The notes: generated by a model from the sequence alone, not told the origin. A stretch of 64,000 bases of DNA from an uncultured archaeon (GCA_964587725.1 CAZPLO010000004.1:16323-80322), one strand, 5' to 3'; positions 3,418 through 63,837 are shown, counted from the first letter of the stretch. Numbers and translations are program-made.

Positions 3418-3443
3418 AATATTTTGGGAGACGCCAATATAAA

Positions 3444-3815
3444 TCAGGCCTTCTCCTCAGCTTTGATGCGGCGCCACAGCTCCATGACCTCGGCGGGGTC
3501 GTCGATTTTCTCGTTTCCGAAGACGTGTGGGTGGCGCCTCACAATCTTGTCCTCGAGCTCCGCCATCACGTCGTCGACGGTGAACAGCCCCCGTTCTTCG
3601 GCGATACGGCTCATGAACAGCACATGCCATAGTATGTCGCCCAGTTCCTCCCGGAGGTTGTCGTAGTCTTCCTTATCCAGCGCCTCCAGCACCTCCAGGG
3701 ATTCGTTGCTGAAGTGGACTTTGAAGTCGTCCAGCGTCTGCTCACGGTCCCATGGACACCCGTCGGGGCCGCGCATACGGGCCATCAGCTCCCTGAGTTC
3801 TTCGAAGGAGGTCAT
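3444..3815 (-). CDS. mazG: MazG-family nucleotide pyrophosphohydrolase (small archaeal type)
   Basis: 123 aa with EVLEALD...ELGDILWHVLFMSRIAEERG...VRRHPHVFG, i.e. the EExxE/D and HPHVF motifs of the MazG domain. Confidence 0.7.
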   Translation of the reverse strand: MTSFEELRELMARMRGPDGCPWDREQTLDDFKVHFSNESLEVLEALDKEDYDNLREELGDILWHVLFMSRIAEERGLFTVDDVMAELEDKIVRRHPHVFGNEKIDDPAEVMELWRRIKAEEKA

Positions 3816-9761: not shown

Positions 9762-10351
9762 GGCCAGAGGGTTAGCCTCTGGTCCTTGATGACGTCGGGT
9801 GTCGTGAACTCGACGACCGTGGTGGAGCCTGTACGGGGTATGAACTTTATTTTGACCTCCTTGTTCTCGGCTATGCCGCCTGCGGAGCCGCCGCTGCAGT
9901 CGGCGCAGCTGAACTTGACCTTGAGTATGTCGCCCCGGCTCAAATAGCCGAGGTCGTAGTCCGGCCCCTGCTTCACATAGTATACTACGAACGTCTGCGT
10001 GTCCGGGGCGAGGTCGCCGTCTGAGACGTTGCCCCCGTATTCGAGGCTCTGCGATGTCGTGGAGGTGTCGACCAACAGGACGGTGTGGTTGAGGTTCAAT
10101 GCCTGGCTTCCCGCCTGCAGCTTCGCAATCACCTCGAAGTATTCGAGGTCGTGGTCGTTGCCGTCCGTGGCCATCACCGACAGCACCTCCATGCCGGTGG
10201 CCACGCCCTCCTCGGTCTGGGAGCCGGTGGTCAACGCCCTCTGCTGAAGGCTCCCGGAGGTGTTGATTAAGACGGCCGCTGCCACGGCAGCCACCAGTAT
10301 TACCGCTATGAATATGATGAGCGTGCCTATGCCCATCAAACCCCGGTCCAT
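9758..10351 (-). CDS. flaB: Archaellin (archaeal flagellin) with class III signal peptide
   Basis: From the internal ATG: [56 protein letters not shown], the canonical archaellin N-terminal domain. The extended ORF start at 10405 is probably not used. Confidence 0.75.
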
Positions 10352-45586: not shown

Positions 45587-48500
45587 ATTCTACAGGGTCG
45601 ACGACGGACGCCTGCGTGAAGAAGACCCTGATGCCGTCGGAGGGTTGAAACGGACCAGGGCAGATGTCAACGCCGAAAGGATAACGGAGGGTGAGGTGCC
45701 GCCGCAGTTGATGCCGCCTCTGATGCATGCTATGGCGGACGAGCCACGCCGCATGTACGACGCATACCTGTTCAGCGCCAAAAACCCGGAAGGCTTCGAA
45801 ACAGTCAATGGCCTCCTCAGGGACGGTAGGATAGATGCGGACGAATTCAACACAGCCGTGAAACTGGGGGTGGACCGGCCGGCGGCGTTCAAGGATTTGA
45901 AGGACGTCATCTCCGAAGGCGGTGAAATGGTGGAGCGGTCGAGACTCGTCCTGGCGGTGGCTGCCAGAGGCTATGACAGGTTCGTTGAAGACAGTCTGCT
46001 GGCGGCCATGGACGACGAGCTGGGACTGGAGGATGTGAGGAAGCTGACGCGGGAGCTGAAGGCTGGCGAGGTAGGGGAATCAGAACTCAAGGGTAAACTT
46101 GAATCCCTGTGGCCGCAGCCGGAACCCCTGGAGCAGGAAGTCCGGGAGGTGGTGCAGCCGGAGGTACGTGAGCCGGAGATCACGCCGGAGGAGAGGAAAG
46201 CCAACCAGGTTGAAGACAGCATAATGACCACCTTCCCCGACGAGCACTGGAACCGGGCCGCCGACGCCTACGCCAGGTTCAAGGACGGCGGCCACAGCCT
46301 CACCGAAACCGAATGGCGGGACGTATTCCACGCCGTCGGGAGAACCCATGAAGACCGTTTCCCGGAGGAGAAGATACTCTATTTTGAAAACATGATGGCG
46401 CAGCCGGAGCACATAAGCATGTACGTGAACAATGAGAGACTCAGCAGGGCTTGGAAGCTGATGGAGGGTGTGGGCGCGGACATAAGATACAACCCAGACC
46501 AGGATTTCAGGAGGGAGTCGTTCAATACAGTATTCCTCAGAGAGCCCGAAGTCTTCCAGTTCCTGACAGGGGAAAAATCAGATTCCATAGGGGAAGCGGT
46601 TAATGGGGTGAGGGTTGTGTGCGGACGCGATAACGCGCTGAAGTACCTGAGGCACATTATCTCCCACCGCGGACAGGCGGACGTGCTTGCTGACGCGTCT
46701 CGGGTGACCAGGGCGGGTATGCTGGTGGACTCGGTCAATGAAGAGGAAGGCGGGTTGCGGGAGAGAGCATTCTATGACGTGTTCCTGTCCGAACCCGGCG
46801 ACTTCCAGCTGCTGACGGGAGAGATGGCAGGCGGCCTCCGGGAGGCTGTGTCGACGGTGGACTCCCCCGTCGAACACCGGCTGAGGTTCCTAGAGCACAT
46901 GCTGTCACCGGAAGACCCCGGCAGAGACTACATGGAGGCTGTGGCGGACGGCAAAAGCTTCGGCATCGCGGCGAACGTCATGGACGGCCTGCGGCACATC
47001 ACCCACGAATTCAACAACGGCAGGGGCGTGTTCAAATCCGACGAGGCGCTGGCGGAGGCAATGGCGGGATACGGCCTGGAGGGAAGATACGACGACATGG
47101 TGTTCGAGAGCGTGTTCATCCGCTCCCCTGACACCTTCAGAAGAATCGCCAGCGGGAAATCCCACGAGGCCATGAGGGAGATACTGACGGACAACGATAA
47201 AATCCGGAGTGCGGGCCACTACATGAAAGACTACATACTGCTGCTGGGCAAGAGACCCGAGGTGCTGGGGAACTTCATAGAGGTGGAGGAGGGCAGGATC
47301 ATATGGGCGGACAGGATACCCGTGTACATCAGCGCAGTCTCGCGGCTGCAGGACGGGGACAGACGCGTTAAACGGTACTTCCATGCGATGATGGGCGGCA
47401 GCGAATACGCGACGGCTTTGAGCAACCCCGAAGTCATCGACAGAGCCCTTGGCTACCTCCGAGACCCCAACGTTATGCGCTACCTGCAGCCGACTACGGC
47501 AGTGCACCCCGACTTCATGGCCATGGACAGGGAGGAGCAGGCGGCTGAGCTGAACACAGTCCGCAGAATCATAGAGGAGGAAGAGAGGGTTGAGGCTCCT
47601 CATAGGGAGGGGCCTGGGGTCAAGGAACCCCGGCGACGGGAGAGGGAAGCCGGCGTGGAGAGGGAACGCAGGCCTCTGAGGCTGACCACAACGTTGCACG
47701 GGGTTATGATACCGAATCCCGAGTACGCGTCGATGGAGTGGGAGGGAGTGGACTCCGAGGTCCGGAGCATGTTCACGTTGAACACCACCCACATGAGCGC
47801 GAGCGAGATAGGGAAGCTCAGGGAGCTGAACCTGCCGTACCACCAGTCGCTGATATTCAACGTGCTGACCAACGTCAGCGGCAGACTGGAGGCTTCAGTG
47901 GACGAACTTCAGAGGATTATGATGATGCATCCGCTGGTGGGCGTGGTCTACGGAGGCGAGGGGGGCAGGGACAACCTGCTCGCCGACATACGGGCCATGA
48001 GCGAAGGAAACATGCCCCTCTACGCCGCAGGGGGCGTTGTGGGCATAAGGGAGGATTACACCAACATAGGCAGGACCGACGTCGGCGAAGCCAGGGGCAG
48101 CATCATGCGGGAGGCGGGAGGCGAAGACCAGGTCGCCGTACTGACTGCACTGGCGGAGTCAGAGGACCATCACGCCAGGATAGACGACGTCATAACCAAG
48201 GTGGCGGGCTTCACGGGCCGGCACCCCTCCGACATTTCAGACACAGTCAGGGGGGTGGTGGGCGAGCTGAAGAAGCAGGGTGTTTTGGTGAACGCGGAAC
48301 CCACGGGCAACGAGGTGTTGTTGAGCCCGTCGTTCATAGCCGAGGTCCAGGGCATGAAGGTGCCTGAGGCCTACTGGAGCACGTACCGGCACGTGGTGGA
48401 TCCGCTGGCGAGGGTGCGTGGCATGTATTTGGCTGAGTTCGGAGACGAACCCGGCGTAGAGGACTTCAACCCCCGTATGGTGTCAACAGAGCAGGGGGTG

Positions 48501-49208
48501 CGGGATGCGGTCGCGATGTTCAGCAGCAGGGACGACGCCATCATAACACGGAGGCTGGCTCTGCTGAAGATTATGTCCAGGCTGAACCTGGACCTGAACC
48601 ACGGCGCCAAGCTGGAGAACATCAGGAGGCATGCGGGTGAGGCGGGGTTGAGCGACACGATGGTGAACAGGGTGCTACCGCAGCTGGTGGACGACAGGGA
48701 AGGCGTGTTGCAGAGGGTGGCGCTCGGATACTACAGGATAAACCCGCGATACTGGGCCAAGAAGGAGACCGTCTACGGGGAGATAGAGTACGGTGAGTTC
48801 GACCGCACGAATCCGGAGATGCATGGGAACATAGACGGTGAACGAGTGGAGGCAGATGTGATGAGAAAAGTGGATGAGAGGGACGTGGGGGATGCTATGA
48901 CGCTTCTGAAATCCATCTCCCACCAGCACCGGCGGAGACGGTACTGTGCGAGAGCCAGCGACCTCCGGGATTTGATGAGGATGTGGGGGGTTGACGTCTC
49001 ACTGGAGGATGTGACACGCGACCTTGACGCCCTAGGGAAGAGCATCGAGGCGCCGGTGCGGGTGAGGGACAGGTGGGTGGACGGTGAACTGGTTCAGGAG
49101 GAGGTGCCCGTGGGCGCGTCGTATCCTCCGCTGGTTGACAAGTATTCGCCGCCGGAGGCGTCTCAAGAAAGATATTTCATATTCAACCCCAGCGGACACT
49201 ACAGCTGA
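45579..49208 (+). CDS. Giant hypothetical cytoplasmic protein 2 (about 1210 aa) with three internal repeats of about 90 aa
   Basis: A likely GTG start at 45579 (or 45570) is preceded by GGAGGT at 45565-45570 and overlaps the upstream TAA, so the listed ORF from 45453 is probably over-extended. Repeats FNTVFLREPEVFQFLTGEKS, FYDVFLSEPGDFQLLTGEMAG and FESVFIRSPDTFRRIASGKS. Confidence 0.6.
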   Translation: MNKFYRVDDGRLREEDPDAVGGLKRTRADVNAERITEGEVPPQLMPPLMHAMADEPRRMYDAYLFSAKNPEGFETVNGLLRDGRIDADEFNTAVKLGVDRPAAFKDLKDVISEGGEMVERSRLVLAVAARGYDRFVEDSLLAAMDDELGLEDVRKLTRELKAGEVGESELKGKLESLWPQPEPLEQEVREVVQPEVREPEITPEERKANQVEDSIMTTFPDEHWNRAADAYARFKDGGHSLTETEWRDVFHAVGRTHEDRFPEEKILYFENMMAQPEHISMYVNNERLSRAWKLMEGVGADIRYNPDQDFRRESFNTVFLREPEVFQFLTGEKSDSIGEAVNGVRVVCGRDNALKYLRHIISHRGQADVLADASRVTRAGMLVDSVNEEEGGLRERAFYDVFLSEPGDFQLLTGEMAGGLREAVSTVDSPVEHRLRFLEHMLSPEDPGRDYMEAVADGKSFGIAANVMDGLRHITHEFNNGRGVFKSDEALAEAMAGYGLEGRYDDMVFESVFIRSPDTFRRIASGKSHEAMREILTDNDKIRSAGHYMKDYILLLGKRPEVLGNFIEVEEGRIIWADRIPVYISAVSRLQDGDRRVKRYFHAMMGGSEYATALSNPEVIDRALGYLRDPNVMRYLQPTTAVHPDFMAMDREEQAAELNTVRRIIEEEERVEAPHREGPGVKEPRRREREAGVERERRPLRLTTTLHGVMIPNPEYASMEWEGVDSEVRSMFTLNTTHMSASEIGKLRELNLPYHQSLIFNVLTNVSGRLEASVDELQRIMMMHPLVGVVYGGEGGRDNLLADIRAMSEGNMPLYAAGGVVGIREDYTNIGRTDVGEARGSIMREAGGEDQVAVLTALAESEDHHARIDDVITKVAGFTGRHPSDISDTVRGVVGELKKQGVLVNAEPTGNEVLLSPSFIAEVQGMKVPEAYWSTYRHVVDPLARVRGMYLAEFGDEPGVEDFNPRMVSTEQGVRDAVAMFSSRDDAIITRRLALLKIMSRLNLDLNHGAKLENIRRHAGEAGLSDTMVNRVLPQLVDDREGVLQRVALGYYRINPRYWAKKETVYGEIEYGEFDRTNPEMHGNIDGERVEADVMRKVDERDVGDAMTLLKSISHQHRRRRYCARASDLRDLMRMWGVDVSLEDVTRDLDALGKSIEAPVRVRDRWVDGELVQEEVPVGASYPPLVDKYSPPEASQERYFIFNPSGHYS

Positions 49209-49263
49209 AGTTTAAATTATTTTGAATTTTTTATAAATTATTTATAAAATATTCTAAATTTTT

Positions 49264-50148
49264 TCAACTCGATTTGATGCCGGAGAACAGAGCCAGAACC
49301 TCCACCCCCTCGGCGCTGTCGTCGACCGTGTTAGTCCATATGAGGCTGGCTTCCCCTGCCTCCGCGGATATCCTGTCCAGCGCATCCTGCAGGCCGCGCA
49401 ATGCCTTGGAGTGGGTGGTGAAGTTCAGCAACACCCCGGACGCGGTGCCGACGTCCCCGCCTACGAGCGGAGAAGACAGCGCCGACTCAACCGCCTTGGC
49501 CAGGGTGGGTCCGACTCCGTGGCCGATGGCCCCGTAGCCGGTGAGCAGCGGCCGCAGGTTATCGAGGCCGGAGTCGATTATCAGCTTCACCATGCCACGG
49601 ACAGCCTCCAACAGCAGGTGGTTGACTTTCGTGAACGCATCCCGTATCGACAAATCCGGAACCACCTTCAGGAAACGGTCGTTCTCTATCACCACTATCA
49701 GGTCGCAGTAGGGGTGGAGGTTGTCGAGCGCGGCTTTGGCGTTGCTCCTGCACACCTTCCCCTCCGCAGTGAACGGTGTGTTCACGAAAGCCACAACGGT
49801 GCTGCCGTGCTCCTTCGCAGCCTCCGCCACAATCGGCGACGCCCCCGCGCCGGTGCCGCCCCCTATGCCCGCGATGACAAAGGTTGCTTCCGCGCCGGCG
49901 AGCACGCCCGCCAGTTTGTCGCGGTCGCCTATGGCTGCCTGCTCCCCCAGCATGATGTTGTTGCCGGTGCTCCTCCCCTTGGTGACATCCCGTCCAATCA
50001 ACACCTTGGTGGGGACCTTACGTTCCAGCAGGGACATTGCGTCGGTGTGTACGGCTATGAGCTCGCAGCCGCATTCACCCATGCGCTCCACGGTCGCGCA
50101 CCCGCTGCCTCCGACCCCCACCACCTTGATTGCGTGCCCGGAAGACAT
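49264..50148 (-). CDS. ftsZ: FtsZ/tubulin-family GTPase, compact (294 aa, no C-terminal linker/tail)
   Basis: IKVVGVGGSGCATV (G1), GGGTGAG (T4 tubulin signature), DLIVVIENDRFL (FtsZ NDxxL). The C-terminal domain ends VEVLALFSGI. The T7 region GLDNLRPLL is divergent from GLINVDFADV. Confidence 0.7.
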   Translation of the reverse strand: MSSGHAIKVVGVGGSGCATVERMGECGCELIAVHTDAMSLLERKVPTKVLIGRDVTKGRSTGNNIMLGEQAAIGDRDKLAGVLAGAEATFVIAGIGGGTGAGASPIVAEAAKEHGSTVVAFVNTPFTAEGKVCRSNAKAALDNLHPYCDLIVVIENDRFLKVVPDLSIRDAFTKVNHLLLEAVRGMVKLIIDSGLDNLRPLLTGYGAIGHGVGPTLAKAVESALSSPLVGGDVGTASGVLLNFTTHSKALRGLQDALDRISAEAGEASLIWTNTVDDSAEGVEVLALFSGIKSS

Positions 50149-51118: not shown

Positions 51119-52081
51119 ATGGAGAACGAGCTTCGGCGTGACTATTTTCTGGACCGCCATGTTATCATCGCGGTCGGGCGCGGGAAGCGGCCGACCGACT
51201 TCAAAAAAGATGGTGCGGCAGAGGATGGCGGGGGGAAGACCTGCTTCTTCTGCCCAGGCAACGAGCACACGACGCCACCGGAGATAAGCAGGGTTGAAGA
51301 GGACGGGAGGTGGGTGATACGGGTGTTCCCCAACAAATTCCCCGCGGTAACGAAGGAGGAGGGGGAGGCAGGAGAGTATCTGATGCCCGCCTACGGCGAC
51401 CACGAGGTGGTGGTGGAAAGCCCAGTCCACGGGGAGACGGTGGCGGACTTGAGCTTGAACAGGATAGCCCAGGTCCTGAAGGTGTACATGGAGAGGGTTG
51501 AGGCGATGCTGTCCGACCCGAAGGCAGAGTATGCGCTGGTGTTCAAAAACCACGGCAAAAAAGCTGGTGCGTCTCTAAGCCACACCCACACCCAGATAAT
51601 TTCGCTGCCGGTGGTGCCGGAGCTGGTCCGGGAGGAGGCTGACGCCGCCGACGCCCACATAACCTGGAAGGGCTCGTGTCCGCTGTGCGACGCCTGGAAA
51701 AAAGAATCCGGCGGGCCCAGGAGCGTGTGGGAGGACGAAAACGTCTCAGTATTCACGCCCTACGCCTCCAGATCCCCCATGGAGGCCTGGGTGGTGCCTA
51801 AAAAACACGCTCTCCAGCTGAGCGACTTGACGGGTGAGGAGATGGGAGGCATGGCCTATGGTTTGAAGCTGCTGCTGCAGTCTTTGAAGGAGAGGCTGGG
51901 AGACCCGGCATACAACATGGTCCTGCATTTAAGCCCCGCGGGAAGAGACCTCCACATGCACTTTGAACTGCTTCCTAGGCTTTCAAACTGGGCTGGGTTC
52001 GAACTGGGTTCCGGGATAATAATCAACAGCATGCCGCCGGAGACGGCTGCGGAGTTCTACAGGAGCGGAGAGGGTATTTAA
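51119..52081 (+). CDS. Galactose-1-phosphate uridylyltransferase-like HIT-superfamily nucleotidyltransferase
   Basis: CFFCPGNEHTTPPE zinc knuckle and HTHTQ (HxHxQ) catalytic motif. 320 aa. Confidence 0.7.
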   Translation: MENELRRDYFLDRHVIIAVGRGKRPTDFKKDGAAEDGGGKTCFFCPGNEHTTPPEISRVEEDGRWVIRVFPNKFPAVTKEEGEAGEYLMPAYGDHEVVVESPVHGETVADLSLNRIAQVLKVYMERVEAMLSDPKAEYALVFKNHGKKAGASLSHTHTQIISLPVVPELVREEADAADAHITWKGSCPLCDAWKKESGGPRSVWEDENVSVFTPYASRSPMEAWVVPKKHALQLSDLTGEEMGGMAYGLKLLLQSLKERLGDPAYNMVLHLSPAGRDLHMHFELLPRLSNWAGFELGSGIIINSMPPETAAEFYRSGEGI

Positions 52082-52100
52082 TCCAGTATTTTATATTTTT
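52072..52100 (+). promoter_or_regulatory. AT-rich promoter region (gtatttaatcc ... ttttatatttttt) before ATG 52105
   Basis: The only AT-rich block near the start. It overlaps the 3' end of the upstream gene. Confidence 0.35.
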
Positions 52101-52104
52101 TAAG

Positions 52105-53982
52105 ATGAGGACTGCCCTGTCGCTGACGCTGGTCTTGCTTCTGACATGCTGTTCCGCAGCACAGGAACCCAGTGTCCTCACCCAGATGTGGGAGCAGAGC
52201 CCCATACCCCTCGGAGAAACCGCAGTGGTGGTGGACGCCTACGTGGGGGACCTGGACAACAACGGCGTTGAGGAAGCGTGCGTTGTTACGTCAGGGGTGG
52301 CGACCGGCCGGACCGCAACCCAGAAGAACAGGGTGGTGGCCTACGGCGCCAACGGCACAGTCTTCTGGACCTATGGAGTAGACGGCAGAGTGCGGGCCTC
52401 CGCCCTCTACGACATAAACAACGACCGCAACCTCGAGTTCATAGTTTCAAGCGGGGAGAAAATGAACCTGCTGCAGAGCGGCAGCATACGGGTGATAGGG
52501 GGTTTCGGAAACCTTCTGAGGAGTTTCAGCTCCAGCGCCATAGTAGATTCCATGTACGTGACCGACATGGACGGCGACAGATACTATGAGATAGTGGGTG
52601 GGGGCGTGAAGAGGGTGTTCCTGTACAGGAGCTTCGGGGAGAACATATGGCATTACCCCCCCGAAGGCGGGGGAGGATTCAACGTCTCGGTGAACGCCGT
52701 CCACTCAGCAGACATAAACGGCGACGGCGTAAGCGAAGTCGCGGCTGGAGCGGACAGGATATACTACATAGACTTGGAGGGAAACCTCATGGGTTCGGTG
52801 GACACGGAGCCGGAAGTCCACCAACTCAAGAAGGGATTCAAATACCTTGAGATGGTAAGGCTGGGCGGGGGAGGGTACCTGGACACCCTCGCCGTCACCG
52901 AATCGGACAGGATAGTGGCCGTCGGCGTGGAGGACGGCATGATGCAGCAGGATGTTTTTAAGATAAAGTTGAACATCCGCTGGACCACCGACCTCGGGTG
53001 CACCGTCAACGCCGTGGAGACATACAACATAGACACAGACGATTTCACAGAGGTGATAGTGGCGTGCTCCGACAACAAGGTCTACGCCATAGACAACAAC
53101 GGGTGGACTGTCTGGGAGTACCCCCTCGACGGGGAGCCCATGGACCTGTACATAAAGGACATGGACGGCGACGGCCTGGAAGACCTGTTGGTGGGGACTT
53201 CAAGCGGCTCCATCTACCTGCTCGACCTTTCAGGAGACTTTAAGTGGATACACAAGACCGGCTCCCCCGTGGTGAAGGTCGCCGCCGGGGACATCGACGG
53301 AGACAGGATGAACGAGGTGTTCGTGGTCTCGGAGGAGCCGCTGGCGAAGGCCTACGCGGTGAACGAGACATATACGCTTAGAAGGAGGGCGGACACCACC
53401 TTCAACATGGGTCAGGAAGCGTACATAACCTCCGACTACGACGACGCCCTCAAGTACTTCAGGGAGGCTTCGGACCTGTACAGGCGCCTAGGCAGTGAAA
53501 AAGGGGTTATGGATTCTCAGACCTTCATAGCCAAGATAGAGTCCAGGATACTGGAGGAGAGGAGGGCGGAGGCGGACATATTCTATGAGCGCGCGCAGGA
53601 CGCGTTCATCGCAGGCGACTATGCCGGAACACGGCAGCATGTGGGACGGGCGAAAGGCATATACGAGGAATTCGGGGACATAGACGGGGTAGTGAAGTGC
53701 GAGCTGCTGGAGGTGAGGATAGACCAGCAGACAGGGGTGGTTGAGCCCACGGTGACACTGCCCAGGTCCACCTCCACCACCGTCCCCGACACGGGCGGAG
53801 GCGGGGACAACACCCTCCTGATTATTCTCGCCGGAGGCGTGGGACTGCTCGCCGCCGTATTCATCATGAAAAGACGGTCGGCTGGCGCCGAAACCATAGA
53901 TGAGTCCGTGGACTCGTCCAAGGACGCGTGGGAGCGTGAGGTTCTCGGGTTGGACGATGAAACAGAGGAGGATGTGAAATGA
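52105..53982 (+). CDS. Surface protein: signal peptide, FG-GAP beta-propeller repeats, TPR-like helical repeats, C-terminal TM
   Basis: Signal MRTALSLTLVLLLTCCSAAQ. FG-GAP-like units (DLDNNGVEEACVVTS, DINNDRNLEFIVSSG, DMDGDRYYEIVGGG, DINGDGVSEVAAGA, DMDGDGLEDLLVGTSSG, DIDGDRMNEVFVVS). Helical units YDDALKYFREASDLYRRLGSEKG and YAGTRQHVGRAKGIYEEFGDIDG. Anchor LLIILAGGVGLLAAVFIM. Confidence 0.7.
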   Translation: MRTALSLTLVLLLTCCSAAQEPSVLTQMWEQSPIPLGETAVVVDAYVGDLDNNGVEEACVVTSGVATGRTATQKNRVVAYGANGTVFWTYGVDGRVRASALYDINNDRNLEFIVSSGEKMNLLQSGSIRVIGGFGNLLRSFSSSAIVDSMYVTDMDGDRYYEIVGGGVKRVFLYRSFGENIWHYPPEGGGGFNVSVNAVHSADINGDGVSEVAAGADRIYYIDLEGNLMGSVDTEPEVHQLKKGFKYLEMVRLGGGGYLDTLAVTESDRIVAVGVEDGMMQQDVFKIKLNIRWTTDLGCTVNAVETYNIDTDDFTEVIVACSDNKVYAIDNNGWTVWEYPLDGEPMDLYIKDMDGDGLEDLLVGTSSGSIYLLDLSGDFKWIHKTGSPVVKVAAGDIDGDRMNEVFVVSEEPLAKAYAVNETYTLRRRADTTFNMGQEAYITSDYDDALKYFREASDLYRRLGSEKGVMDSQTFIAKIESRILEERRAEADIFYERAQDAFIAGDYAGTRQHVGRAKGIYEEFGDIDGVVKCELLEVRIDQQTGVVEPTVTLPRSTSTTVPDTGGGGDNTLLIILAGGVGLLAAVFIMKRRSAGAETIDESVDSSKDAWEREVLGLDDETEEDVK

Positions 53983-55832
53983 GGTGTTGGACGGCCTTGG
54001 CTGTTTTGATGCTCGCAGCCTCGGCTGCGGCGGTGACTTCAGAGTTCGAAGCCGACAGCCTCTACCAGACCGCCGACTCGTTCTACAAGAGCGGAGACTA
54101 CGAGAACGCGTTGAAGAGCGCCCACTTATCCAGGAGAATCTACGAGGACATGGGGAACAGCTGGGGCGTGGACAGGGCCAACGCCCTCATCAACAACATA
54201 GAGTCTATGCTTTCGAAGAAGCAGCTGGCCGACACATACTACAACATAGCCGGCGACTACTTCCTGCAGACCCATCAGAACCCGGAGATAATGGACAGGG
54301 CGGTGAACATGGCCGGGAGGGCGAAAAGCCTTTATGAAGACCTCGGCGACTCATCCGGAGTACTGAAGTGCGAGGACCTTATTGAACGCGCCAACAACCG
54401 CATAGACGCCATATTCAACCAGTGCGTGAAGGAGGGGGACCAACTGTACCAGGACGCTCAGAGCAGCTTCTTCCTCCAGGAGTACGTGGACGCCCGGGAG
54501 TACGCTTTAATCGCAAGCGAGAAATACGCCAGCTGCCCGTACCAGCAGGGCATGGACAGGACAGACTCCCTGCTGTCGTCGATAAACGCGAAGATAAGAG
54601 AGATAAAGATAAACGCGCAGGCCAGCTACGACAAAGCCATAGACTACCTCGCCGAAGACGACTACGAACGGTGCAAGGAATATGCCGCATCCTCGCAGAG
54701 GCTGTTCCAGCAGATAGAGGATGACGAAGGCATCACCAGCGCGACCTCCCTGCTGACCAGATGCAACAGGGGCATCGTGGAGTGGGAGGAGGACATGGTG
54801 AGGCAGGCTGAGTCCTGCATGGCGGAGGCGCGGACATACTCCATAATACCCAACTGCCTCAACGCCACCGAGAAGGTCAGCTGCGCCAGAGACATCTACC
54901 AGGAACTCTACAGCTACTGGCGCGAAAGGGAGAAGGGACTGTCGGCACACCTGCAGGTTAAGACCGGATTATATCAGTCTTACCTCAGCGAAGTCAACGC
55001 ATTGAGTTCCAGCATAGACGCCACCTGCGGGGAGCAGAGGATGCTGGGGATAGCGGAGGACTTCTACCGGCAGAGCCAGGGATACTACCTCGAAAACGAC
55101 CTCAACGAGGCCATGTCCTACGCCAACAAGGCCAGGGAGCTTTTCGTCCAGTTCCAGAGATATGTGGGGATATCGAAGGTGGACTCCCTGATAGCGCAGA
55201 TAGAGGCGCGGATGAGGCAGCGGACGGAAGCGGATTCGTTTATGAAGAACGCGGAGTCATACTACACCACCGCAGCCTTCGAGGACGCGTTAATTGATGC
55301 TACCAAGGCCCGGACCATTTACTCGAACATGAAGGATGAGGAGAACATTCAGGCGGCGGAGGAGCTGATTGAGAGGATAAACAACGGCTCCCAGCGGCTG
55401 GACGCAGCCAACGGCCACTACAGCAGGGCCAGGAGCTATCTGGAGTCTGGGGACTACAGGAACGCCCTCGAATACGCGAGGCAGGCCGAGTCAGGGTATT
55501 CCGCAGTCAACTACACCCTCGGGGTCGCGGAGTCCCAGGCGATAATAGAGGAGAGCAGGGAGGCCTTGGCCGAGGACGAGGCCGCGTTCAGGAACACATT
55601 AATCATAATAGGGTTCATAGCGTTGGTGGCCGGCTTCCTGATTATACAGTTCATGCGCCGCCGGAGGATGATGGAGATGCAGTATGAGGAGCGGAAGGCC
55701 GAGGAGGAGGCTTTGACCAAGAGGCGTGACGAGGAATGGGCTCTCAGGAGAGAGGATGAGACCAAGACCCAGGTGGAGGACGAGCTCCGCAAACTCATAG
55801 AGGATGAGAGGAGCAAGGCGGAGGGGCCGTGA
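53979..55832 (+). CDS. Surface protein composed of about eight tandem 55-60-aa TPR-like helical repeats, with a C-terminal TM and charged tail
   Basis: ATGA overlap with the upstream gene. Signal MRCWTALAVLMLAASAAAV. Units such as YQTADSFYKSGDYENALKSAHLSRRIYEDMGNSWGVDRANALINNIESML and YYNIAGDYFLQTHQNPEIMDRAVNMAGRAKSLYEDLGDSSGVLKCEDLIERANNRIDAIF. Anchor LIIIGFIALVAGFLIIQFM, then a KR/E-rich tail. Confidence 0.65.
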   Translation: MRCWTALAVLMLAASAAAVTSEFEADSLYQTADSFYKSGDYENALKSAHLSRRIYEDMGNSWGVDRANALINNIESMLSKKQLADTYYNIAGDYFLQTHQNPEIMDRAVNMAGRAKSLYEDLGDSSGVLKCEDLIERANNRIDAIFNQCVKEGDQLYQDAQSSFFLQEYVDAREYALIASEKYASCPYQQGMDRTDSLLSSINAKIREIKINAQASYDKAIDYLAEDDYERCKEYAASSQRLFQQIEDDEGITSATSLLTRCNRGIVEWEEDMVRQAESCMAEARTYSIIPNCLNATEKVSCARDIYQELYSYWREREKGLSAHLQVKTGLYQSYLSEVNALSSSIDATCGEQRMLGIAEDFYRQSQGYYLENDLNEAMSYANKARELFVQFQRYVGISKVDSLIAQIEARMRQRTEADSFMKNAESYYTTAAFEDALIDATKARTIYSNMKDEENIQAAEELIERINNGSQRLDAANGHYSRARSYLESGDYRNALEYARQAESGYSAVNYTLGVAESQAIIEESREALAEDEAAFRNTLIIIGFIALVAGFLIIQFMRRRRMMEMQYEERKAEEEALTKRRDEEWALRREDETKTQVEDELRKLIEDERSKAEGP

Positions 55833-55834
55833 AT

Positions 55835-57277
55835 ATGATAGACAGTATAATGGACATCTCCAAGAGGAGGGGCATCGTCTACCCGTCCTTCGAAATATAC
55901 GGGGGAGTAAGCGGGTTCGTCGACTACGGACCCATGGGTTCGCGGATAAAACAGAACATAGAGGACCTGCTGCGGCGACACTATGTGGTCTGCCAAGGCT
56001 GCTTTGAAGTCCAGTGCCCCACGTTGAGTCCGGAGGATGTGTGGATTGCGTCCGGCCACGTCAACAGCTTCGCCGACGTCATGACGGAATGCAATAAATG
56101 CGGGGAATGCTTCCGCGCCGACAAACTCTTGTCCGGGGCGGGGGTGGAGGCTGAGGGTATGCCGCCGGAGCAGATGCATTCGCTGCTGGTGGAGAACAAA
56201 ATCGTGTGCCCCGACTGCGGGTGCGGGCTATCGGAGCCGTACGAATACAACCTCATGTTCCAGACCAGCATCGGCGCCGGCAAAGGCGGTAAGACAGGTT
56301 ACATGAGGCCTGAGACCGCGCAGTCCACGTACCTGGCGTTCAAGCGGCTGTGGGAGTTCGCCCGCAGGCGGCTGCCGTTCGGCGTCATCCAGATAGGACA
56401 CTCCTTCAGGAACGAGATAAGCCCCCGGCAGGGCATGATTCGGCTGCGAGAGTTCAACCAGGCGGAGATACAGTTTTTCATGGACCCCGAAGACAAGTCC
56501 GCGCCGGGGTTCTACGAGGTATTGGGGCGGAATGTCACGATAAAGGACAAGAACGACCGGATGCTGGAGACGACGCTGGGTGAGGCCCATGAAAAGGGCG
56601 TTATAGAGATACAGTTCATCGCCTACCAGCTGGGGAAGGCGTTGGATGCATTCGAGGACATGGGAATAGACCCGGGGAAGCTGCGGCTGCGGCAGCACCG
56701 CGACGACGAGCGCTCCTTCTACAGCAGCGACACTTGGGACGTCGAGTACGTGAGCGACGTGTACGGGGAGATAGAGATAGTCGGCATCGCAGATAGAACA
56801 GACTATGATTTGAAGCAGCACATGGAACACAGCAAGGAGAGGATGACTGTGTCTTATGATGGGCGGAAGTTCGTCCCCCACGTAGTCGAAGTAGCATACG
56901 GCATAGACCGTCCGATATACTGTGTCCTGGAGAGCTGCCTCCGCTCCGAAGAGGATAGGACAGACTACTTCGCGTTCCCCAAACAGGTGGCCCCGTATCT
57001 GGCTGGTGTTTTCCCTCTGGTGAGGAAAGACGGCATCCCAGAGAAGGCGGATGAAGTGTTCAAGTTGTTGACGGACATGGGCCTGTACGTGTTCTCGGAC
57101 CGCTCCGGAAGCATCGGGAAACGGTACGCCCGCGCAGACGAAATAGGGGTTCCATACTGCGTGACAATAGACTACGACACCCTCGAGGACGACAAAGTCA
57201 CCGTCCGCAACAGGGACAGCACAGAGCAGGAGAGGGTTAATGTGGAGGAACTTGGGAACTTCCTTCTGCACTTATAA
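55835..57277 (+). CDS. glyS: Glycyl-tRNA synthetase (alpha2 type)
   Basis: MIDSIMDISKRRGIVYPSFEIYGGVSGFVDYGPMG, RPETAQSTYLAFKRL...GVIQIGHSFRNEISPR and EIGVPYCVTIDYDT are co-linear with class II alpha2 GlyRS. The ATG lies 2 nt after the upstream stop; the track's GTG 55829 is an alternative. Confidence 0.85.
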   Translation: MIDSIMDISKRRGIVYPSFEIYGGVSGFVDYGPMGSRIKQNIEDLLRRHYVVCQGCFEVQCPTLSPEDVWIASGHVNSFADVMTECNKCGECFRADKLLSGAGVEAEGMPPEQMHSLLVENKIVCPDCGCGLSEPYEYNLMFQTSIGAGKGGKTGYMRPETAQSTYLAFKRLWEFARRRLPFGVIQIGHSFRNEISPRQGMIRLREFNQAEIQFFMDPEDKSAPGFYEVLGRNVTIKDKNDRMLETTLGEAHEKGVIEIQFIAYQLGKALDAFEDMGIDPGKLRLRQHRDDERSFYSSDTWDVEYVSDVYGEIEIVGIADRTDYDLKQHMEHSKERMTVSYDGRKFVPHVVEVAYGIDRPIYCVLESCLRSEEDRTDYFAFPKQVAPYLAGVFPLVRKDGIPEKADEVFKLLTDMGLYVFSDRSGSIGKRYARADEIGVPYCVTIDYDTLEDDKVTVRNRDSTEQERVNVEELGNFLLHL

Positions 57278-57300: not shown

Positions 57301-57873
57301 ATGATGATTCCCCTTATCCCGTCGGACAGCGGCGGCGAAGACCCTGTTGAGGAGATAGTCGGCACCACGACAGACGAGGTTGTGCTGGCTGTGACCTCGC
57401 CCATAAACTACTTCCCCCTCTACGTCAACACTCTGAAGATGCTCCTGAAGACGGAGCAGACAGGTGTGTGCGTGACCTTCAACCGCTCCGCGAAGGCGGT
57501 GGCCGACGTCCTCAAAAAGGAGGGGGTGGACATCAGCAGACTGTATTTCGTGGACTGCATATCCAAGGTGTCCGGCGTCAGGGACGAGGGCGAGAGGACA
57601 GAGTACGCGGAGAGCCCGTCGGCGCTGAGCAGCATAGGCATCGCCGTCAACGCCTCCCTGGAGAAGACGGGGGGCGGAGCATTCATAGTCTACGACTCCA
57701 TACCCACCCTCCTCATATACAACGACCTGGAGGACGTGCTGCAGTTCACAGACTACATCATAAACAAGATGCGGGAGAAGACGGGGAAGACCGTGATATT
57801 CGCCGTCGAGGAGGGAGATGTTAAACTGATGAATCATCTGATGCAGTCCTGCGACAAAGTGGTGAAGACTTAG
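57301..57873 (+). CDS. RecA/KaiC-superfamily-like domain protein without Walker A (hypothetical)
   Basis: 190 aa with alternating beta-alpha layout (VTFNRSAKAV..., YFVDCISK..., AFIVYDSIPTLL...). No GxxxxGK[ST] motif. Confidence 0.3.
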   Translation: MMIPLIPSDSGGEDPVEEIVGTTTDEVVLAVTSPINYFPLYVNTLKMLLKTEQTGVCVTFNRSAKAVADVLKKEGVDISRLYFVDCISKVSGVRDEGERTEYAESPSALSSIGIAVNASLEKTGGGAFIVYDSIPTLLIYNDLEDVLQFTDYIINKMREKTGKTVIFAVEEGDVKLMNHLMQSCDKVVKT

Positions 57874-60399: not shown

Positions 60400-63300
60400 T
60401 CACATCTCCTTCAGTCTGCTGGGCTTCCCCCACCGAGGGGGGGTGTGGATGAACATGAAGAAGTAGTATCCCATGAGGGACATGAGGATTGTGAGTGCGC
60501 CGAGTTCAACTTCGTCGGCTGGGAACACCCGCTCGGGGACGGTGGATGTGGTGGTCGACGAGGTCGTGGTTGTTGTCGTGGAAGAGGTCGTCGAAGACGT
60601 CGTGGTCGTCTCCGGCTGCAGCGTCGTGGAAGTGGTGGTCGACGTAGTGGTTGTGGTGGTTGTTCCGAACACGTAGAGTGTGCCGTCGTCGCTGCCTACG
60701 GCAATCTCCAATACGCCGTCGTTGTTGATGTCCGCCACCGCGGGGGAGGAGCGGACGAACCCTCCGGTCTTATACTGCCACCTGGAGACTCCGGACGCGT
60801 TAAGTATGTAGATTCTGCCATCGTCACCCCCGAATATTATCTCCGGTGAGCCGTCGCGGTCTAGGTCAGCCAGCGCAGGAGAGGTGCGGATTGGGCCGTC
60901 TGTGGTGTACCTGAACAGGCGGCTGCCCGTCTTGTTAACCACATAGAGGTTGCCGTCGGTGGAACCCAGCGCCATCTCCAGTCCGTCGTCGTCGGCCAAA
61001 TCCGCGACTGCGGGGGAAGAATGCAGTTCCCCGCCTAATGGAATCTCCCATCTGGCGCGGAGGCGGGTTACGGAGACTCCCTCCCGGACGCAGCCTTCAG
61101 GCCCACACACCCGCTGATATGATTCCGTGCCAGCGGAGGACTGGTAGAGGTCGTATAATATGCCGTCAGCCGCAGCCACCAGAACGTCCGTCCTTCTGCT
61201 GCTGTATATGTTCGCTACTGTAGGGGCTGCGGTTACGTCCCCGTTGGTCTGGTACATCCACAGCTTATATGGGGGGGTGTTCAACGCATACAGTGTGTTG
61301 TCTCTGGACCCTATCATCACCTCCACTCCGCCTTCAGAGTCCAGGTCGCCGAAAGCAGGCGGAGACAGCACGTAGTCGGAGGCCGTGTAAGACCAGACCA
61401 GGCCTCCGTAATAATCTACCGCGTATATGTTCTTGTCGAAGCTGCCGAACACCACCTCCTTACCTGTTTTTCCGTCGACGTTCAACGCCTCAGGCGTTGA
61501 GGTCACTGGGCCGCGGGTCCAGTAGCTCCACATGAAGGCGCCGTCGGATTTGAACGACGTGACGCGGCCGTCTTCCGAGGCCACGAGGACTTCGGGGATT
61601 CCGTCGCCGTCGAGGTCGGATGCGGACACGCCGTTGACGCCGCCGACGAGAAACGCCCTCCACAGCAGTTCGCCTTCCGGGTCGATTGCGTAGACGTAGC
61701 CGTCGTAGCTGCCGAACACCGTCTCCAGTCGTCCGTCGCCTAGGCGGTCCAAATCCACCAGTATCGGAGGAGAAGCTATCCTGCCGCCGGTGCTGTAGTT
61801 CCACAGCACCGTGTAGTCTGCCAAATGCGGCTTCACCGGCGATGAGAGCATCCTGGCCAGGGAACCGTATCCCCTGAAGCCTGCAATGTCTTTGAGGGAG
61901 TGGTTGCTGTCGTAGTCGTCCCTGCACCGCCACGCCGCTGTGAGGTTGTATGGGCTGGTTTGGTATCCGCTTCTGACGTCGCACCCCCACTCCAACTCGG
62001 CCACCGGCAAAGGTATTTCATCGTTGCCGGTGGCCGTGCAGTTGAAGGACACGGTGAAGTCGGACACGTTGAACGGGTACTTGAAGTAGGATTTGTCGTG
62101 GGTGCGGTTGTAGTCGGTTTCGTTGAACGTGTTGAGGTAGTTGAGCATGGAGCGTAGGTTCCTGTCAGAATACCCCGTCGTATTGTAGGGTGTGCAGGTC
62201 CAGTTGCTGTACACCCTGTCCACAGGGTAACCCCTCCGCTCATAGTAGTAGCAGGTGAAGTTGAGCATCCAATCCCGTATTTTGAATGCAGTGGTGTTGG
62301 CTGAATCCCACAACACCATTACGTCGTCCATGGTGCGGTTGGAGGAGTTGAGTTCGCACCTCCACCTCAGCTGCCTGTCCCTGACGTCGAAGGAGTCGGT
62401 GAAGTCGAGGTAGCCTGTGCGGCGGCTGTTCTGCTGGAGCGTCGGCCACTCCCCCGCCACAGAGTATATTATGCCGTAGCGGTTGTTGCCTTCGTCCGAC
62501 TCTATGAGCTCGTCTTCCGGGTCGGCGATAACCTCTAGGATGTGTCTGCCGTACGACGCGTTCACAGTGTAGGTGAGGACTTCACTGCCTCCAGGCGCCA
62601 CGGTGACGTAGTCGACGTATTCTGTGTCGCGGTCGAAGTAGACTGTGACCGGGGTGTCCGCAGCCAACGCGCTGCCCGGGTTAGATAGCGTAACATCCAC
62701 CTTCACTGTGCCACCGGCTACGCCGACCGCAGGGTCGACGGTGACCTCCTCCACTGTCAGGTCGGCTGCGCCGCCGAAGGCTTGAATGTATGAGCCCGCC
62801 GGCACATACACGACACCGTTGTAGACTGCGGGCCGGTACCGTATCCTCCCGGAGGTGTTCAGACGCCAGATTATGTCGCCTGTGGACTTGTTCAACGCTA
62901 TCACGTCCTCGTCGGCGCCCACGTACACCGTGTCTTCGGCCGCCATCGGCGTATGGTATACGCTGCCGTTGACGTACGCTGTCCATTCTACGCCGCCGAA
63001 GTACGCGCTCAACGAGTACACGAAACCTTCACGGTCCGCGTACAGTACGCTGTCTCCGGAGACGACTGGTGAGCCGTATATTGTGCCGTTGGCGGTGTGG
63101 TTCCACAGCTGCTCCCCCGTGTACTTGTCCACTGCGTAGAGTCGTTTGTCGCTGGCTGTGAAGTAGACGATGTCCCGATATAATGCGGGGTTGGAGGTTA
63201 TTCTCCCGCGTATGCTGTATTTCCATATTGTCTCGCCTGTGGTGCGGCTGATGCAGTAGAGTGTGCTGCCGGCTCCGACGTAGAGTTTCCAGTCCTCCAG

Positions 63301-63837
63301 CAGCGGCCTGGATTCTATGCTGTCGCCTATGTCATAGTCCCACAGCTCCCTCCCGGTCGACTCCCGGAGCGCATACAGCAGGCCTCCTTCGCTGCCCACA
63401 TACACTGTTCCGTTTCCGACAGCCGGGGGGCTCTGAACCCGTCCTTCAGCAAGGTGGGTCCATATTCGCCCGCCAGTCATGTTGACGGCGTAGACTACGT
63501 TGTTGTCGCATCCGAACAGTATCCTGTCCCCCCTGACCTCGGGCGTGGACCGTATGGCCGCAGTCGACGTGTAGTTCATCGCCGGCTTCCCCGTGGTGGC
63601 GTTGAGGCCGTAGAGCATCCCCGACGACGTGCCATAGTATATGACGCCGTCTTCGGCGACGAGGTCGGTGTACGCGCTGCCCCTGCCCCTGTACTCCCAC
63701 ATCAGCCGGGGCTGCGCGGATGCGGCGGCTGCGAGAAACATTATGAGCAGGGCGTACGCCAGCGTTTTACCGTGCATTAAGGTAGAATAAGGGATTTCAG
63801 AGTAAAAAGAAAAGGGTTGGGTGGGGGGCGTGCGCAC
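60400..63837 (-). CDS. Giant surface protein (1145 aa): signal peptide, PQQ-like beta-propeller repeats, FG-GAP repeats, Thr-rich linker, C-terminal TM
   Basis: Signal MHGKTLAYALLIMFLAAAASAQ. PQQ-like units (LYGLNATTGKP, LYALRESTGRELWDY, LYAVDKYTGEQLWNH). FG-GAP units (DLDGDGIPEVLVAS, DLDRDGSPEIIFGG, DINNDGVLEIAVGS). TTTTTTSTTTSTT...TTSTVPE linker. Anchor LGALTILMSLMGYYFFMFI. Confidence 0.75.
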   Translation of the reverse strand: MRTPPTQPFSFYSEIPYSTLMHGKTLAYALLIMFLAAAASAQPRLMWEYRGRGSAYTDLVAEDGVIYYGTSSGMLYGLNATTGKPAMNYTSTAAIRSTPEVRGDRILFGCDNNVVYAVNMTGGRIWTHLAEGRVQSPPAVGNGTVYVGSEGGLLYALRESTGRELWDYDIGDSIESRPLLEDWKLYVGAGSTLYCISRTTGETIWKYSIRGRITSNPALYRDIVYFTASDKRLYAVDKYTGEQLWNHTANGTIYGSPVVSGDSVLYADREGFVYSLSAYFGGVEWTAYVNGSVYHTPMAAEDTVYVGADEDVIALNKSTGDIIWRLNTSGRIRYRPAVYNGVVYVPAGSYIQAFGGAADLTVEEVTVDPAVGVAGGTVKVDVTLSNPGSALAADTPVTVYFDRDTEYVDYVTVAPGGSEVLTYTVNASYGRHILEVIADPEDELIESDEGNNRYGIIYSVAGEWPTLQQNSRRTGYLDFTDSFDVRDRQLRWRCELNSSNRTMDDVMVLWDSANTTAFKIRDWMLNFTCYYYERRGYPVDRVYSNWTCTPYNTTGYSDRNLRSMLNYLNTFNETDYNRTHDKSYFKYPFNVSDFTVSFNCTATGNDEIPLPVAELEWGCDVRSGYQTSPYNLTAAWRCRDDYDSNHSLKDIAGFRGYGSLARMLSSPVKPHLADYTVLWNYSTGGRIASPPILVDLDRLGDGRLETVFGSYDGYVYAIDPEGELLWRAFLVGGVNGVSASDLDGDGIPEVLVASEDGRVTSFKSDGAFMWSYWTRGPVTSTPEALNVDGKTGKEVVFGSFDKNIYAVDYYGGLVWSYTASDYVLSPPAFGDLDSEGGVEVMIGSRDNTLYALNTPPYKLWMYQTNGDVTAAPTVANIYSSRRTDVLVAAADGILYDLYQSSAGTESYQRVCGPEGCVREGVSVTRLRARWEIPLGGELHSSPAVADLADDDGLEMALGSTDGNLYVVNKTGSRLFRYTTDGPIRTSPALADLDRDGSPEIIFGGDDGRIYILNASGVSRWQYKTGGFVRSSPAVADINNDGVLEIAVGSDDGTLYVFGTTTTTTTSTTTSTTLQPETTTTSSTTSSTTTTTTSSTTTSTVPERVFPADEVELGALTILMSLMGYYFFMFIHTPPRWGKPSRLKEM

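Follow-up and report, generated by a model that had tools for sequence, protein, structure and literature searches.

Why should an essential aminoacyl-tRNA synthetase be encoded in what looks like one transcription unit with two envelope proteins? The question is raised by a 64,000-nucleotide stretch of DNA from an uncultured archaeon (GCA_964587725.1 CAZPLO010000004.1:16323-80322), hereafter called the window, in which three open reading frames (ORFs) follow one another on the plus strand: gene 1 (positions 52105-53982; 625 amino acids (aa)), gene 2 (53979-55832; 617 aa) and, as third cistron, glyS (55829/55835-57277; 480-aa product counted from the ATG at 55835). The reading that we prefer, and to which we assign about an even chance of being correct, is that gene 1 and gene 2 encode a translationally coupled, Altiarchaeota-specific pair of type I membrane proteins that would form a scaffold outside the cytoplasmic membrane, and that glyS is co-operonic with them. 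Domain anatomy, repeat homology, family distribution, gene order and junctions were computed; from these we infer the topology, the rod geometry, the association of the two proteins, their co-transcription and their role. Coordinates refer to the plus strand of the window unless the minus strand is given. The exact sequence also occurs in SRR7048219 and SRR7048220.

The three frames lie exactly where an earlier note, made without database searches, had placed them. The stop codon of gene 1 and the start codon of gene 2 overlap by 4 nucleotides (nt) within an ATGA that can be read directly in the sequence, and the glyS ATG begins 2 nt after the TGA of gene 2 (55830-55832). An upstream GTG at glyS is disfavoured because the N-termini of nine homologues (pattern M[YI]D.ILDISKRRG) begin at the position equivalent to ATG 55835, which we therefore take as the start. 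GGAGG-type motifs are present 7-8 nt 5' of the gene 2 and glyS starts, with GGAGGGG 8 nt before the glyS ATG. The glyS product is a dimeric (alpha2, archaeal/eukaryote-type) glycine--tRNA ligase (GlyRS), which matches TIGR00389 with 571 bits (cut-off 243.3) and NCBIfam NF003211 with 530.6 bits (cut-off 312). It carries the Pfam domains tRNA-synt_2b (the class II core) and HGTP_anticodon, its length is ordinary, and Pfam and NCBIfam scans revealed no extra domain.

The feature that unites gene 1 and gene 2 is a helical repeat derived from the tetratricopeptide repeat (TPR). In gene 2, a signal peptide (aa 1-19/23, from hydropathy) is followed by eight units in which a TPR motif is joined by a third helix (aa 24-534; 54048-55580), a transmembrane segment (aa 535-561; 55581-55661; hydropathy) and a charged helical tail of 56 aa that is predicted to be cytoplasmic (aa 562-617; 55662-55829). 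The earlier note had proposed about eight tandem units followed by a transmembrane segment and a charged tail, and the consensus obtained, approximately A-[DE]-x2-Y-x2-A-x3-Y-x2-G-D-Y-x2-A-x2-Y-A-x2-A-x2-[IL]-Y-x2-L-G-x3-G-V-x5-L-I-x2-I, is close to the one given there. The eight units are 58-80 aa long and co-align with two units in gene 1 and three in a paralogue at 5392-7122. A hidden Markov model (HMM) built from the gene 1 and 5392-7122 units only recovered seven of the eight gene 2 units at 116.7 bits, whereas 200 shuffled sequences reached at most 6.5 bits, and the gene 2 repeat is therefore not a chance pattern. Pairwise comparison by BLASTP agrees that gene 2 is built from the unit of the gene 1 stalk: residues 414-546 of gene 1 align to gene 2 in four registers with E-values down to 4e-13, and units 1-2 of gene 1 are closest to units 1-2 of gene 2 (31% identity).

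When a 60-position profile of the unit was compared with the sequences of the PDB, positions 1-30 matched the consensus TPR (CTPR) at 15-19 bits per repeat and 178 bits over 16 repeats, and positions 31-60 matched nothing among those sequences. No Pfam family passes its cut-off on gene 2; the best are TPR_2 (21.8 bits, cut-off 27), TPR_12 (19.1, cut-off 30.1) and TPR_1 (13.9, cut-off 27.8). DUF357 reaches 19.5 bits (E = 0.001) on residues 466-499, below its cut-off of 29.4, MIT has no Pfam match on gene 2, and Spectrin has none at E <= 0.1, the unit being about 60 aa long. A weak NCBIfam match to GlnX (19.7 bits, cut-off 250) was dismissed as noise. The full-length gene 2 profile found a single marginal TPR match among PDB sequences and no solved relative. 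Judged by these profile comparisons, the unit consists of a single canonical TPR motif to which a third helix is added, and the 55-60 aa unit as a whole is not an annotated Pfam family and is restricted to one lineage-specific family. The possibility, raised in the earlier note, that it might prove to be an ordinary TPR or Sel1 family applies to its first half as a TPR, and not to the whole.

The third helix appears to change how the repeats pack. The AlphaFold2 model of gene 2 (predicted local distance difference test score (pLDDT) 87.8, predicted template modelling score (pTM) 0.44) is all helical, and long helices (36-41 residues) and short ones (17-25 residues) follow each other in alternation (lengths from DSSP). 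This alternation suggests that the third helix of each unit runs unbroken into helix A of the next, and in the model the helix of the final unit continues through the transmembrane segment into the cytoplasmic tail. Foldseek detected TPR likeness only locally (LGN/Pins, CTPR and Tom70, with E-values of 1e-7 to 1e-5); against CTPR8/16, LGN and Tom70 the TM-scores are 0.07-0.19 and the root-mean-square deviation is above 22 Å, so the modelled shape differs from a TPR superhelix. The predicted pattern is instead that of an extended rod, a spectrin-like chain of small three-helix modules, which at about 3 nm per module would measure an estimated 20-25 nm if the modules are collinear.

Gene 1 presents a different head on a shorter version of the same stalk. 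Its signal peptide (aa 1-20, hydropathy) precedes an FG-GAP beta-propeller (aa 25-419; 52177-53361; Pfam and AlphaFold2), two TPR-plus-helix units (aa 426-544; 53380-53736), a disordered Thr-rich linker (aa 545-566), a transmembrane segment (aa 567-590; 53803-53874; hydropathy) and an acidic tail of 35 aa that is predicted to be cytoplasmic (aa 591-625). Three Pfam propeller models exceed their cut-offs: FG-GAP_3 (59.5 bits, cut-off 26.9), FG-GAP (32.4, cut-off 22.1) and Beta-prop_CGLA, the lambda-carrageenase propeller (50.8, cut-off 26.8). TPR_12 scores 19.7 bits, below its cut-off of 30.1. Seven Ca2+-type D-x-[DN]-x-[DN]-[GRD] loops begin at residues 49, 103, 154, 203, 308, 352 and 396, one more than the six counted in the earlier note. 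An AlphaFold2 model made from 13 orthologues, which are 40-53% identical, has a pLDDT of 83.3 and a pTM of 0.68; it contains 32 strands (residues 25-419), five helices (421-543), the disordered linker and a transmembrane helix. The best Foldseek match is the eight-bladed designed propeller Cake8 (TM-score 0.81), followed by BamB (0.68) and YxaL (0.61-0.66); the seven-bladed propellers of BBS1 and BBS9 score 0.66-0.71. The gene 1 propeller is probably eight-bladed in this model.

Each of the two proteins has an N-terminal signal-like segment and one C-terminal transmembrane segment by hydropathy, and both look like type I membrane-anchored extracytoplasmic proteins. N-x-S/T sequons are invariant in gene 2 at N295 and N511 (each in 8/8 orthologues) and nearly invariant in gene 1 at N83 and N420; together with the conserved Thr-rich linker of gene 1 they fit ectodomains that are extracytoplasmic and glycosylated. 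The description of both as anchored envelope proteins in the earlier note is upheld as far as signal peptide, transmembrane segment and sequons go, features that do not separate a surface from a periplasmic location. Cysteines occur at residues 131, 149, 186, 232, 262, 293 and 350 of gene 2 and at 299, 321 and 532 of gene 1. The conserved ones are odd in number in both ectodomains, and a [VL]KCE[LD]L motif is common to helix C of unit 2 in both proteins. A disulfide between gene 1 and gene 2 through this motif was considered and rejected: gene 1 of one locus (L003) has no cysteine at all, gene 2 of another (L002) has serine where the gene 1 cysteine is kept, and gene 2 of two more (L007 and L008) lacks the motif. 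Intramolecular stapling of modules by cysteines is possible.

How stable is the arrangement? We compared nine loci of the window's type from different Altiarchaeota and two loci of a divergent clade (L016 and L017), 11 related loci in all. The order gene 1-gene 2-glyS is kept in all nine loci, with near-zero spacing throughout in eight, at protein identities of 64-73% for GlyRS, 28-49% for gene 1 and 30-47% for gene 2. The junction between gene 1 and gene 2 measures -8 to +4 nt in 9/9 loci, with GGAGG upstream, and that between gene 2 and glyS measures -20 to +2 nt, except in L004 (+33 nt). The divergent clade has the order GalT-like gene, gene 2-like gene, TPR-AAA ATPase gene, glyS; its gene 2-like protein is 21-25% identical to gene 2 and its GlyRS 63-65%, and an FG-GAP/TPR gene lies 2.7 kb downstream. 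The ATPase, of about 470 aa, joins TPRs to a classical AAA domain (L016 9382-10791; L017 9287-10705) and is closest to the CDC48, PAN, FtsH and CdvC models, all of which score below cut-off. Gene 2 and glyS are adjacent, or parted only by this ATPase gene, in 11/11 loci, and the outer flanks differ. As it is kept in L016 and L017, the linkage predates the remaining gene neighbourhood and exceeds it in stability.

A single promoter could serve the three genes. The TATA-like A/T octamer TATTTAAT (52075-52082) lies 30 nt 5' of the gene 1 ATG and overlaps the stop codon of the preceding GalT-like gene. A pure or near-pure A/T octamer is present at -30 to -33 before gene 1 in 8/9 orthologous loci, and in L016 and L017 one precedes the gene 2-like gene, at -41. 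No comparable octamer precedes glyS in the compared loci except in L004, where the sole spacer between gene 2 and glyS (33 nt; 9885-9917) accompanies the sole pre-glyS octamer, GTTTTATT at -31; there glyS has apparently acquired a promoter of its own. Neither internal junction of the window operon contains an oligo-T tract (T5 or longer) or an AT-rich island, and no Rfam family, riboswitch or tRNA was found near the locus. A scan for sigma-70 promoters and hairpin terminators was set aside as inapplicable to archaea; its terminator-like hits within the gene 1-glyS block lie on the non-coding strand, with one exception inside glyS. The octamer is thus the putative promoter of gene 1-gene 2-glyS, whose mRNA would lack a leader or begin with a very short one. 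Tight conserved junctions, a TATA-like box before gene 1 only and the absence of T5+ tracts from the junctions argue well for a three-cistron operon. Of the claims in the earlier note, the shared transcript therefore gains solid indirect support, and the internal promoter or terminator that it named as a counter-indication is seen at neither window junction, only the L004 octamer being of that kind.

Conservation also points into the cytoplasm. The gene 2 tail ends near its C-terminus in the motif LRKLIEDER (aa 603-611; 55785-55811), captured by the pattern [LMIV][RKQ]x[LIMV][LIVM]xxE[RK]. This amphipathic motif occurs in 35/53 gene 2-like proteins, 4-29 residues from the C-terminus, divergent long-tailed ones included, and in 0/11 gene 1-like tails. 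In L016 and L017 it terminates a coiled-coil tail, about 200 aa long. No unit of the ectodomain exceeds the core of the tail in conservation, and the conserved motif points to a cytoplasmic partner; the candidate that most readily suggests itself is the TPR-AAA ATPase, whose gene adjoins the gene 2-like gene in that sister clade.

Could that partner be GlyRS itself? A functional tie might consist in membrane tethering of GlyRS by the gene 2 tail, or in a diadenosine tetraphosphate (Ap4A) circuit with the upstream enzyme of the HIT/GalT branch. GlyRS enzymes can make Ap4A, and the upstream enzyme resembles Ap4A phosphorylases. The GalT/HIT-family nucleotidyltransferase-like gene in question (51119-52081; 320 aa) ends 23 nt 5' of gene 1, and its product matches GalP_UDP_transf (58.6 bits), HIT (44.3) and Ap4A_phos_N (25.1, cut-off 23.1), whereas galT_1 reaches 86 bits against a cut-off of 102. 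Because Ap4A_phos_N passes and galT_1 fails, the protein may not be a true GalT but some other nucleotidyltransferase or phosphorylase of the HIT branch; its gene probably has its own transcript or reads through partially into gene 1. The linkage of gene 2 to glyS in every related locus, even in the clade with changed flanks, the Ap4A_phos_N match and the conserved gene 2 motif speak for such a tie. However, aminoacyl-tRNA synthetase genes often sit in mixed operons, another gene separates the gene 2-like gene from glyS in L016 and L017, glyS of L004 apparently has its own TATA box, and the length and domain content of GlyRS are ordinary. We regard a functional tie as highly improbable, and under the preferred reading glyS would be a stably co-expressed passenger, coupled in expression only. 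A fourth cistron is possible in the window, where a gene for a 190-aa DUF7504/DUF7090 protein (57301-57873; KaiC/RecA-like, weak) starts 23 nt 3' of glyS. The related loci that reach past glyS (L001-L004, L007-L010, L016 and L017) lack it, and it therefore looks like a lineage-specific insertion.

The pair belongs to a larger family. A word-indexed search returned 8 clusters of gene 2 and 14 of gene 1 orthologues, the named ones from Candidatus Altiarchaeota or Altiarchaeales. An exhaustive search with the 60-position unit profile against 1.84 billion representatives, clustered at 50% identity, gave 4563 matches at E <= 1e-3, 678 at E <= 1e-10 and 88 at E <= 1e-30. Among the best 150, about 138 clusters combine a signal peptide, 2-8 units and a C-terminal transmembrane segment, and 12 are ordinary TPR proteins that cover only half the unit. 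About 45 of the best 150 are gene 2-like (29 by a strict rule), with a signal peptide, usually eight units, a transmembrane segment straight after them and a length of about 600-700 aa; another 73 carry an N-terminal domain, 2-6 units and a C-terminal transmembrane segment. FG-GAP or PQQ propellers are present in nine of ten sampled members of this latter class. The named members all come from Altiarchaeota except one metagenome-assembled genome labelled 'Methanobacteriota archaeon'; unit spacing across the family is 50-66 aa, and source annotations call the homologues hypothetical, VCBS-repeat or TPR-repeat proteins. A unit-profile scan of genome contigs with a trimmed alignment found two loci, both from Altiarchaeota, and gives a poor picture of distribution. 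On these profile matches, the paralogous propeller/helical-stalk family proposed in the earlier note is real and larger than first guessed, and its hallmark is that the units always stand directly before the membrane anchor. A targeted literature search found no publication on the gene 1/gene 2 pair.

Two further window proteins had been assigned the same architecture. The product of 5392-7122 (576 aa) is a true paralogue: it has a signal peptide, an FG-GAP propeller (FG-GAP_3 43.1 bits), three units recognized by the unit HMM (aa 350-529), a Thr-rich linker and a transmembrane segment, and BLASTP aligns it to gene 1 and gene 2. Its C-terminus, in which linker and transmembrane segment are followed by a short basic KNR end, resembles a C-terminal sorting signal. 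The large envelope protein encoded at 60400-63837 (minus strand; 1145-aa ORF) does not share the architecture. It comprises a PQQ propeller, CARDB, a sequon-rich middle, an FG-GAP propeller, a Thr/Ser linker of about 50 aa and a transmembrane segment, with 25 N-x-S/T sequons, and a unit-HMM search found no helical unit in it. Its GTG start is probably too far upstream, the likely start being an internal (second) Met before the signal peptide, and a counterpart occupies the same syntenic position in at least four genomes (L001, L002, L008 and L009).

Such abundance of FG-GAP, PQQ and CARDB envelope proteins in the window would suit a simpler view, in which gene 1 and gene 2 are independent surface adhesins or S-layer-like proteins, gene 2 having arisen by duplication and expansion of the gene 1 stalk, with neither a complex nor coupling across the membrane. 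The special resemblance between the first two units of each protein would follow from such a history, and the 73 clusters noted above are stand-alone proteins; the one such locus examined, L013, has no gene 2-like partner. It is less easily reconciled with a start/stop overlap and a Shine-Dalgarno-like GGAGG that are kept while the proteins have diverged to 28-49% identity, an arrangement typical of stoichiometric partners, or with the eight units, the length of about 620 aa and the cytoplasmic motif held in about 45 divergent gene 2 clusters, which a mere stalk would not need. We consider independent adhesins unlikely.

Envelope glycosylation provides a somewhat better alternative. The paralogue at 5392-7122 begins 5 nt after a PMT_2 gene (3869-5386; GT-C, dolichyl-phosphate-mannose-protein mannosyltransferase-like; 46.9 bits, cut-off 26.1), and eukaryotic TMTC enzymes have a PMT_2-type GT-C domain fused to lumenal TPRs. 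By analogy, gene 1 and gene 2 might be accessory substrate- or acceptor-binding subunits of envelope glycosylation that present acceptor proteins or lipids to GT-C enzymes of the outer face. The gene directly 5' of the pair is of the GalT/HIT family in 10/11 related loci (L006 is the exception). A convergent sugar-1-phosphate nucleotidyltransferase gene (NTP_transferase, Hexapep and GMPPB_C) lies downstream in the window and in all eight window-type loci that reach past glyS, in which glyS converges directly on it, and L003 has an additional GT4 gene. However, no glycosyltransferase adjoins gene 1 or gene 2, ScpA/PhoU/PHO4 genes replace the sugar nucleotidyltransferase in L016 and L017, the GalT-like protein may be another HIT-branch enzyme as discussed above, and the conserved cytoplasmic tail of gene 2 is left unexplained. 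A glycosylation role is rather unlikely in our estimation. Just upstream of the PMT_2/paralogue operon, 3028-3456 (minus strand) encodes an apparently cytoplasmic three-TPR protein of about 130 aa, which shares 38% identity with the TPR domain of the TPR-AAA ATPase of L017.

On its other side, the locus borders a gene associated with cell division. A short FtsZ-family gene (49264-50148, minus strand; 294 aa; TIGR00065 200 bits, below the cut-off of 295) is preceded by a gene for an acidic, probably disordered hypothetical protein that has no Pfam hit (50150-~51091, minus strand). The FtsZ-family gene is a divergent neighbour in 8/11 related loci, usually with the acidic hypothetical gene; L003 ends just upstream. 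Ca. Altiarchaeum hamiconexum is bounded by two membranes, with about 32 nm of periplasm between them (PMC4460559). These observations would be compatible with a division- or constriction-linked trans-envelope device analogous to Tol-Pal, with its TolA rod, TolB propeller and CpoB TPR protein, tied to the divergent FtsZ-like protein. Such a device is very unlikely: Pfam and NCBIfam scans gave no match to TolA, TolB (TolB_N/PD40), Pal or CpoB on gene 1 or gene 2, and the FtsZ-like gene, being divergently oriented, is not co-transcribed with the pair. The link to FtsZ was downgraded because L016 and L017 have no FtsZ nearby and keep the gene 2-glyS linkage nonetheless.

Beyond the FtsZ-family gene the window departs from its relatives. 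TatA-TatC-TatA genes follow it in L004 and L007-L010; in the window, two giant ORFs without a Pfam match at E <= 0.01 (42650-45586, 978 aa, and 45453-49208, 1251 aa) occupy the place that Tat and Memo/AMMECR1 genes have in related genomes. The most AT-rich stretch near the locus (49163-49265), in which four consecutive 20-nt windows are 80-95% A+T with T6 runs, falls where the 45453-49208 ORF and the FtsZ-like gene converge and is probably a bidirectional archaeal terminator.

The scaffold that we prefer can be pictured as follows. Gene 2 would be a stiff rod of eight modules, each a TPR hairpin plus a third helix, whose last module helix would continue as the transmembrane helix and then as a conserved cytoplasmic helix ending in the LRKLIExER-type motif. 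Gene 1 would hold a probably eight-bladed propeller with Ca2+-type loops on two modules and a flexible Thr-rich tether. The two proteins might associate side by side through their homologous modules, so that the propeller is held as a ligand- or partner-binding head, the rod serves as a spacer or tether, and the tail passes signals to a partner in the cytoplasm or is itself acted on by it. Given the periplasm of about 32 nm in Ca. A. hamiconexum, a rod of 20-25 nm anchored in the inner membrane would make an attractive spacer or tether.

A bolder version makes gene 2 a trans-envelope ruler or tether of diderm archaea, a rod of about 20-25 nm built from a module not described before, in which a TPR is joined to a continuing helix. 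The rod would reach from the cytoplasmic membrane across much of the periplasm and serve as a dock for the gene 1 propeller, with its tail motif read or pulled by the TPR-AAA ATPase and with obligatory GlyRS co-expression tying envelope growth to translational capacity. If true, no protein machine that spans the periplasm and is specific to double-membraned archaea would have been defined before it; we think this version quite unlikely. Several points weigh against the scaffold. The length and straightness of the rod are estimates from a model with a pTM of only 0.44, and the TPR-AAA gene is absent from this window. Gene 1 is not adjacent to gene 2 in L016 and L017, and the pairing is therefore not universal. 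Limited divergence, with GlyRS about 62-73% identical, may partly explain the kept gene order. Finally, the window has a GC content of 58% and Ca. Altiarchaeum one of roughly 32%, and its high-GC source may therefore belong to another clade such as Alti-2; the double membrane of Ca. A. hamiconexum may not extend to it. Members of Alti-2 are described as free-living and without hami (PMC4975002).

The Altiarchaeota include the best-documented archaea with two membranes, and the proteins that organize their envelopes are almost uncharacterized. The family defined here is lineage-specific, comprises at least about 138 clusters at 50% identity and combines a signal peptide, an optional propeller, 2-8 modules and a C-terminal anchor. 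Within it, the gene 1/gene 2 pair stands out: its architecture is fixed, a cytoplasmic motif is conserved, and the operon that it forms with the gene of an essential aminoacyl-tRNA synthetase is unusually stable. Should the rod model prove right, these proteins would be concrete candidates for spacers or tethers of the diderm archaeal periplasm and would show a new way to build an extended rod from TPR hairpins; if it is wrong, they are still phylum-defining, uncharacterized envelope proteins.

Comparison with known systems places the pair at several crossroads. Functionally, Tol-Pal and Lpp-type spacers provide an analogy only, that of a membrane-anchored helical rod and a beta-propeller in an organism with diderm relatives; the anchor here is C-terminal, and there is no peptidoglycan or Pal equivalent. 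TMTC-type O-mannosyltransferases and prokaryotic fusions of PMT_2 with TPRs resemble the 5392-7122 locus alone, where a PMT_2 gene is followed by TPR-type modules on the non-cytoplasmic side. However, the two parts are separate polypeptides in the window, a propeller is present as well, and no PMT_2 gene adjoins gene 1 or gene 2.

At the level of the module, MIT-like bundles consist of a TPR hairpin and a capping helix, as does a single unit here. The likeness to MIT and DUF357 (AF1782-like) ends with the single module: an MIT domain is a lone cytoplasmic module and binds ESCRT-III tails, whereas gene 2 has eight tandem modules that are predicted to be extracytoplasmic. Spectrin and alpha-actinin rods and bacterial EzrA share the probable helix continuity of three-helix modules in a membrane-anchored rod. 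There is no sequence relationship to spectrin, and the modules of gene 2 are about 60 rather than about 106 aa long, are TPR-derived and would lie outside the cytoplasm.

The closest relatives by sequence are the TPRs of Pfam clan CL0020, with whose CTPR consensus the first half of the unit aligns. Nevertheless, the units depart from TPRs in period (55-65 aa, and 50-66 aa across the family, as opposed to 34-42), in global fold and in scoring below the Pfam thresholds; each hairpin is followed by an extra helix of about 20-25 aa that is predicted to fuse with the next helix A, and the units, presumably extracytoplasmic, always stand directly before a C-terminal transmembrane segment. The gene 1 propeller is a bona fide member of the FG-GAP/VCBS propellers (integrin alpha, PF13517/PF01839) by its Pfam scores and its seven loops. 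It differs from these and from eight-bladed PQQ-like propellers such as BamB and YxaL in what follows it in the chain, namely a stalk derived from TPRs, the Thr-rich linker and the transmembrane anchor at the C-terminus; gene 1 is not a lipoprotein and has no context of the beta-barrel assembly machinery, of which no archaeal example is known. What is new is thus a variant built from known building blocks, set in a lineage-specific family with a conserved operon.

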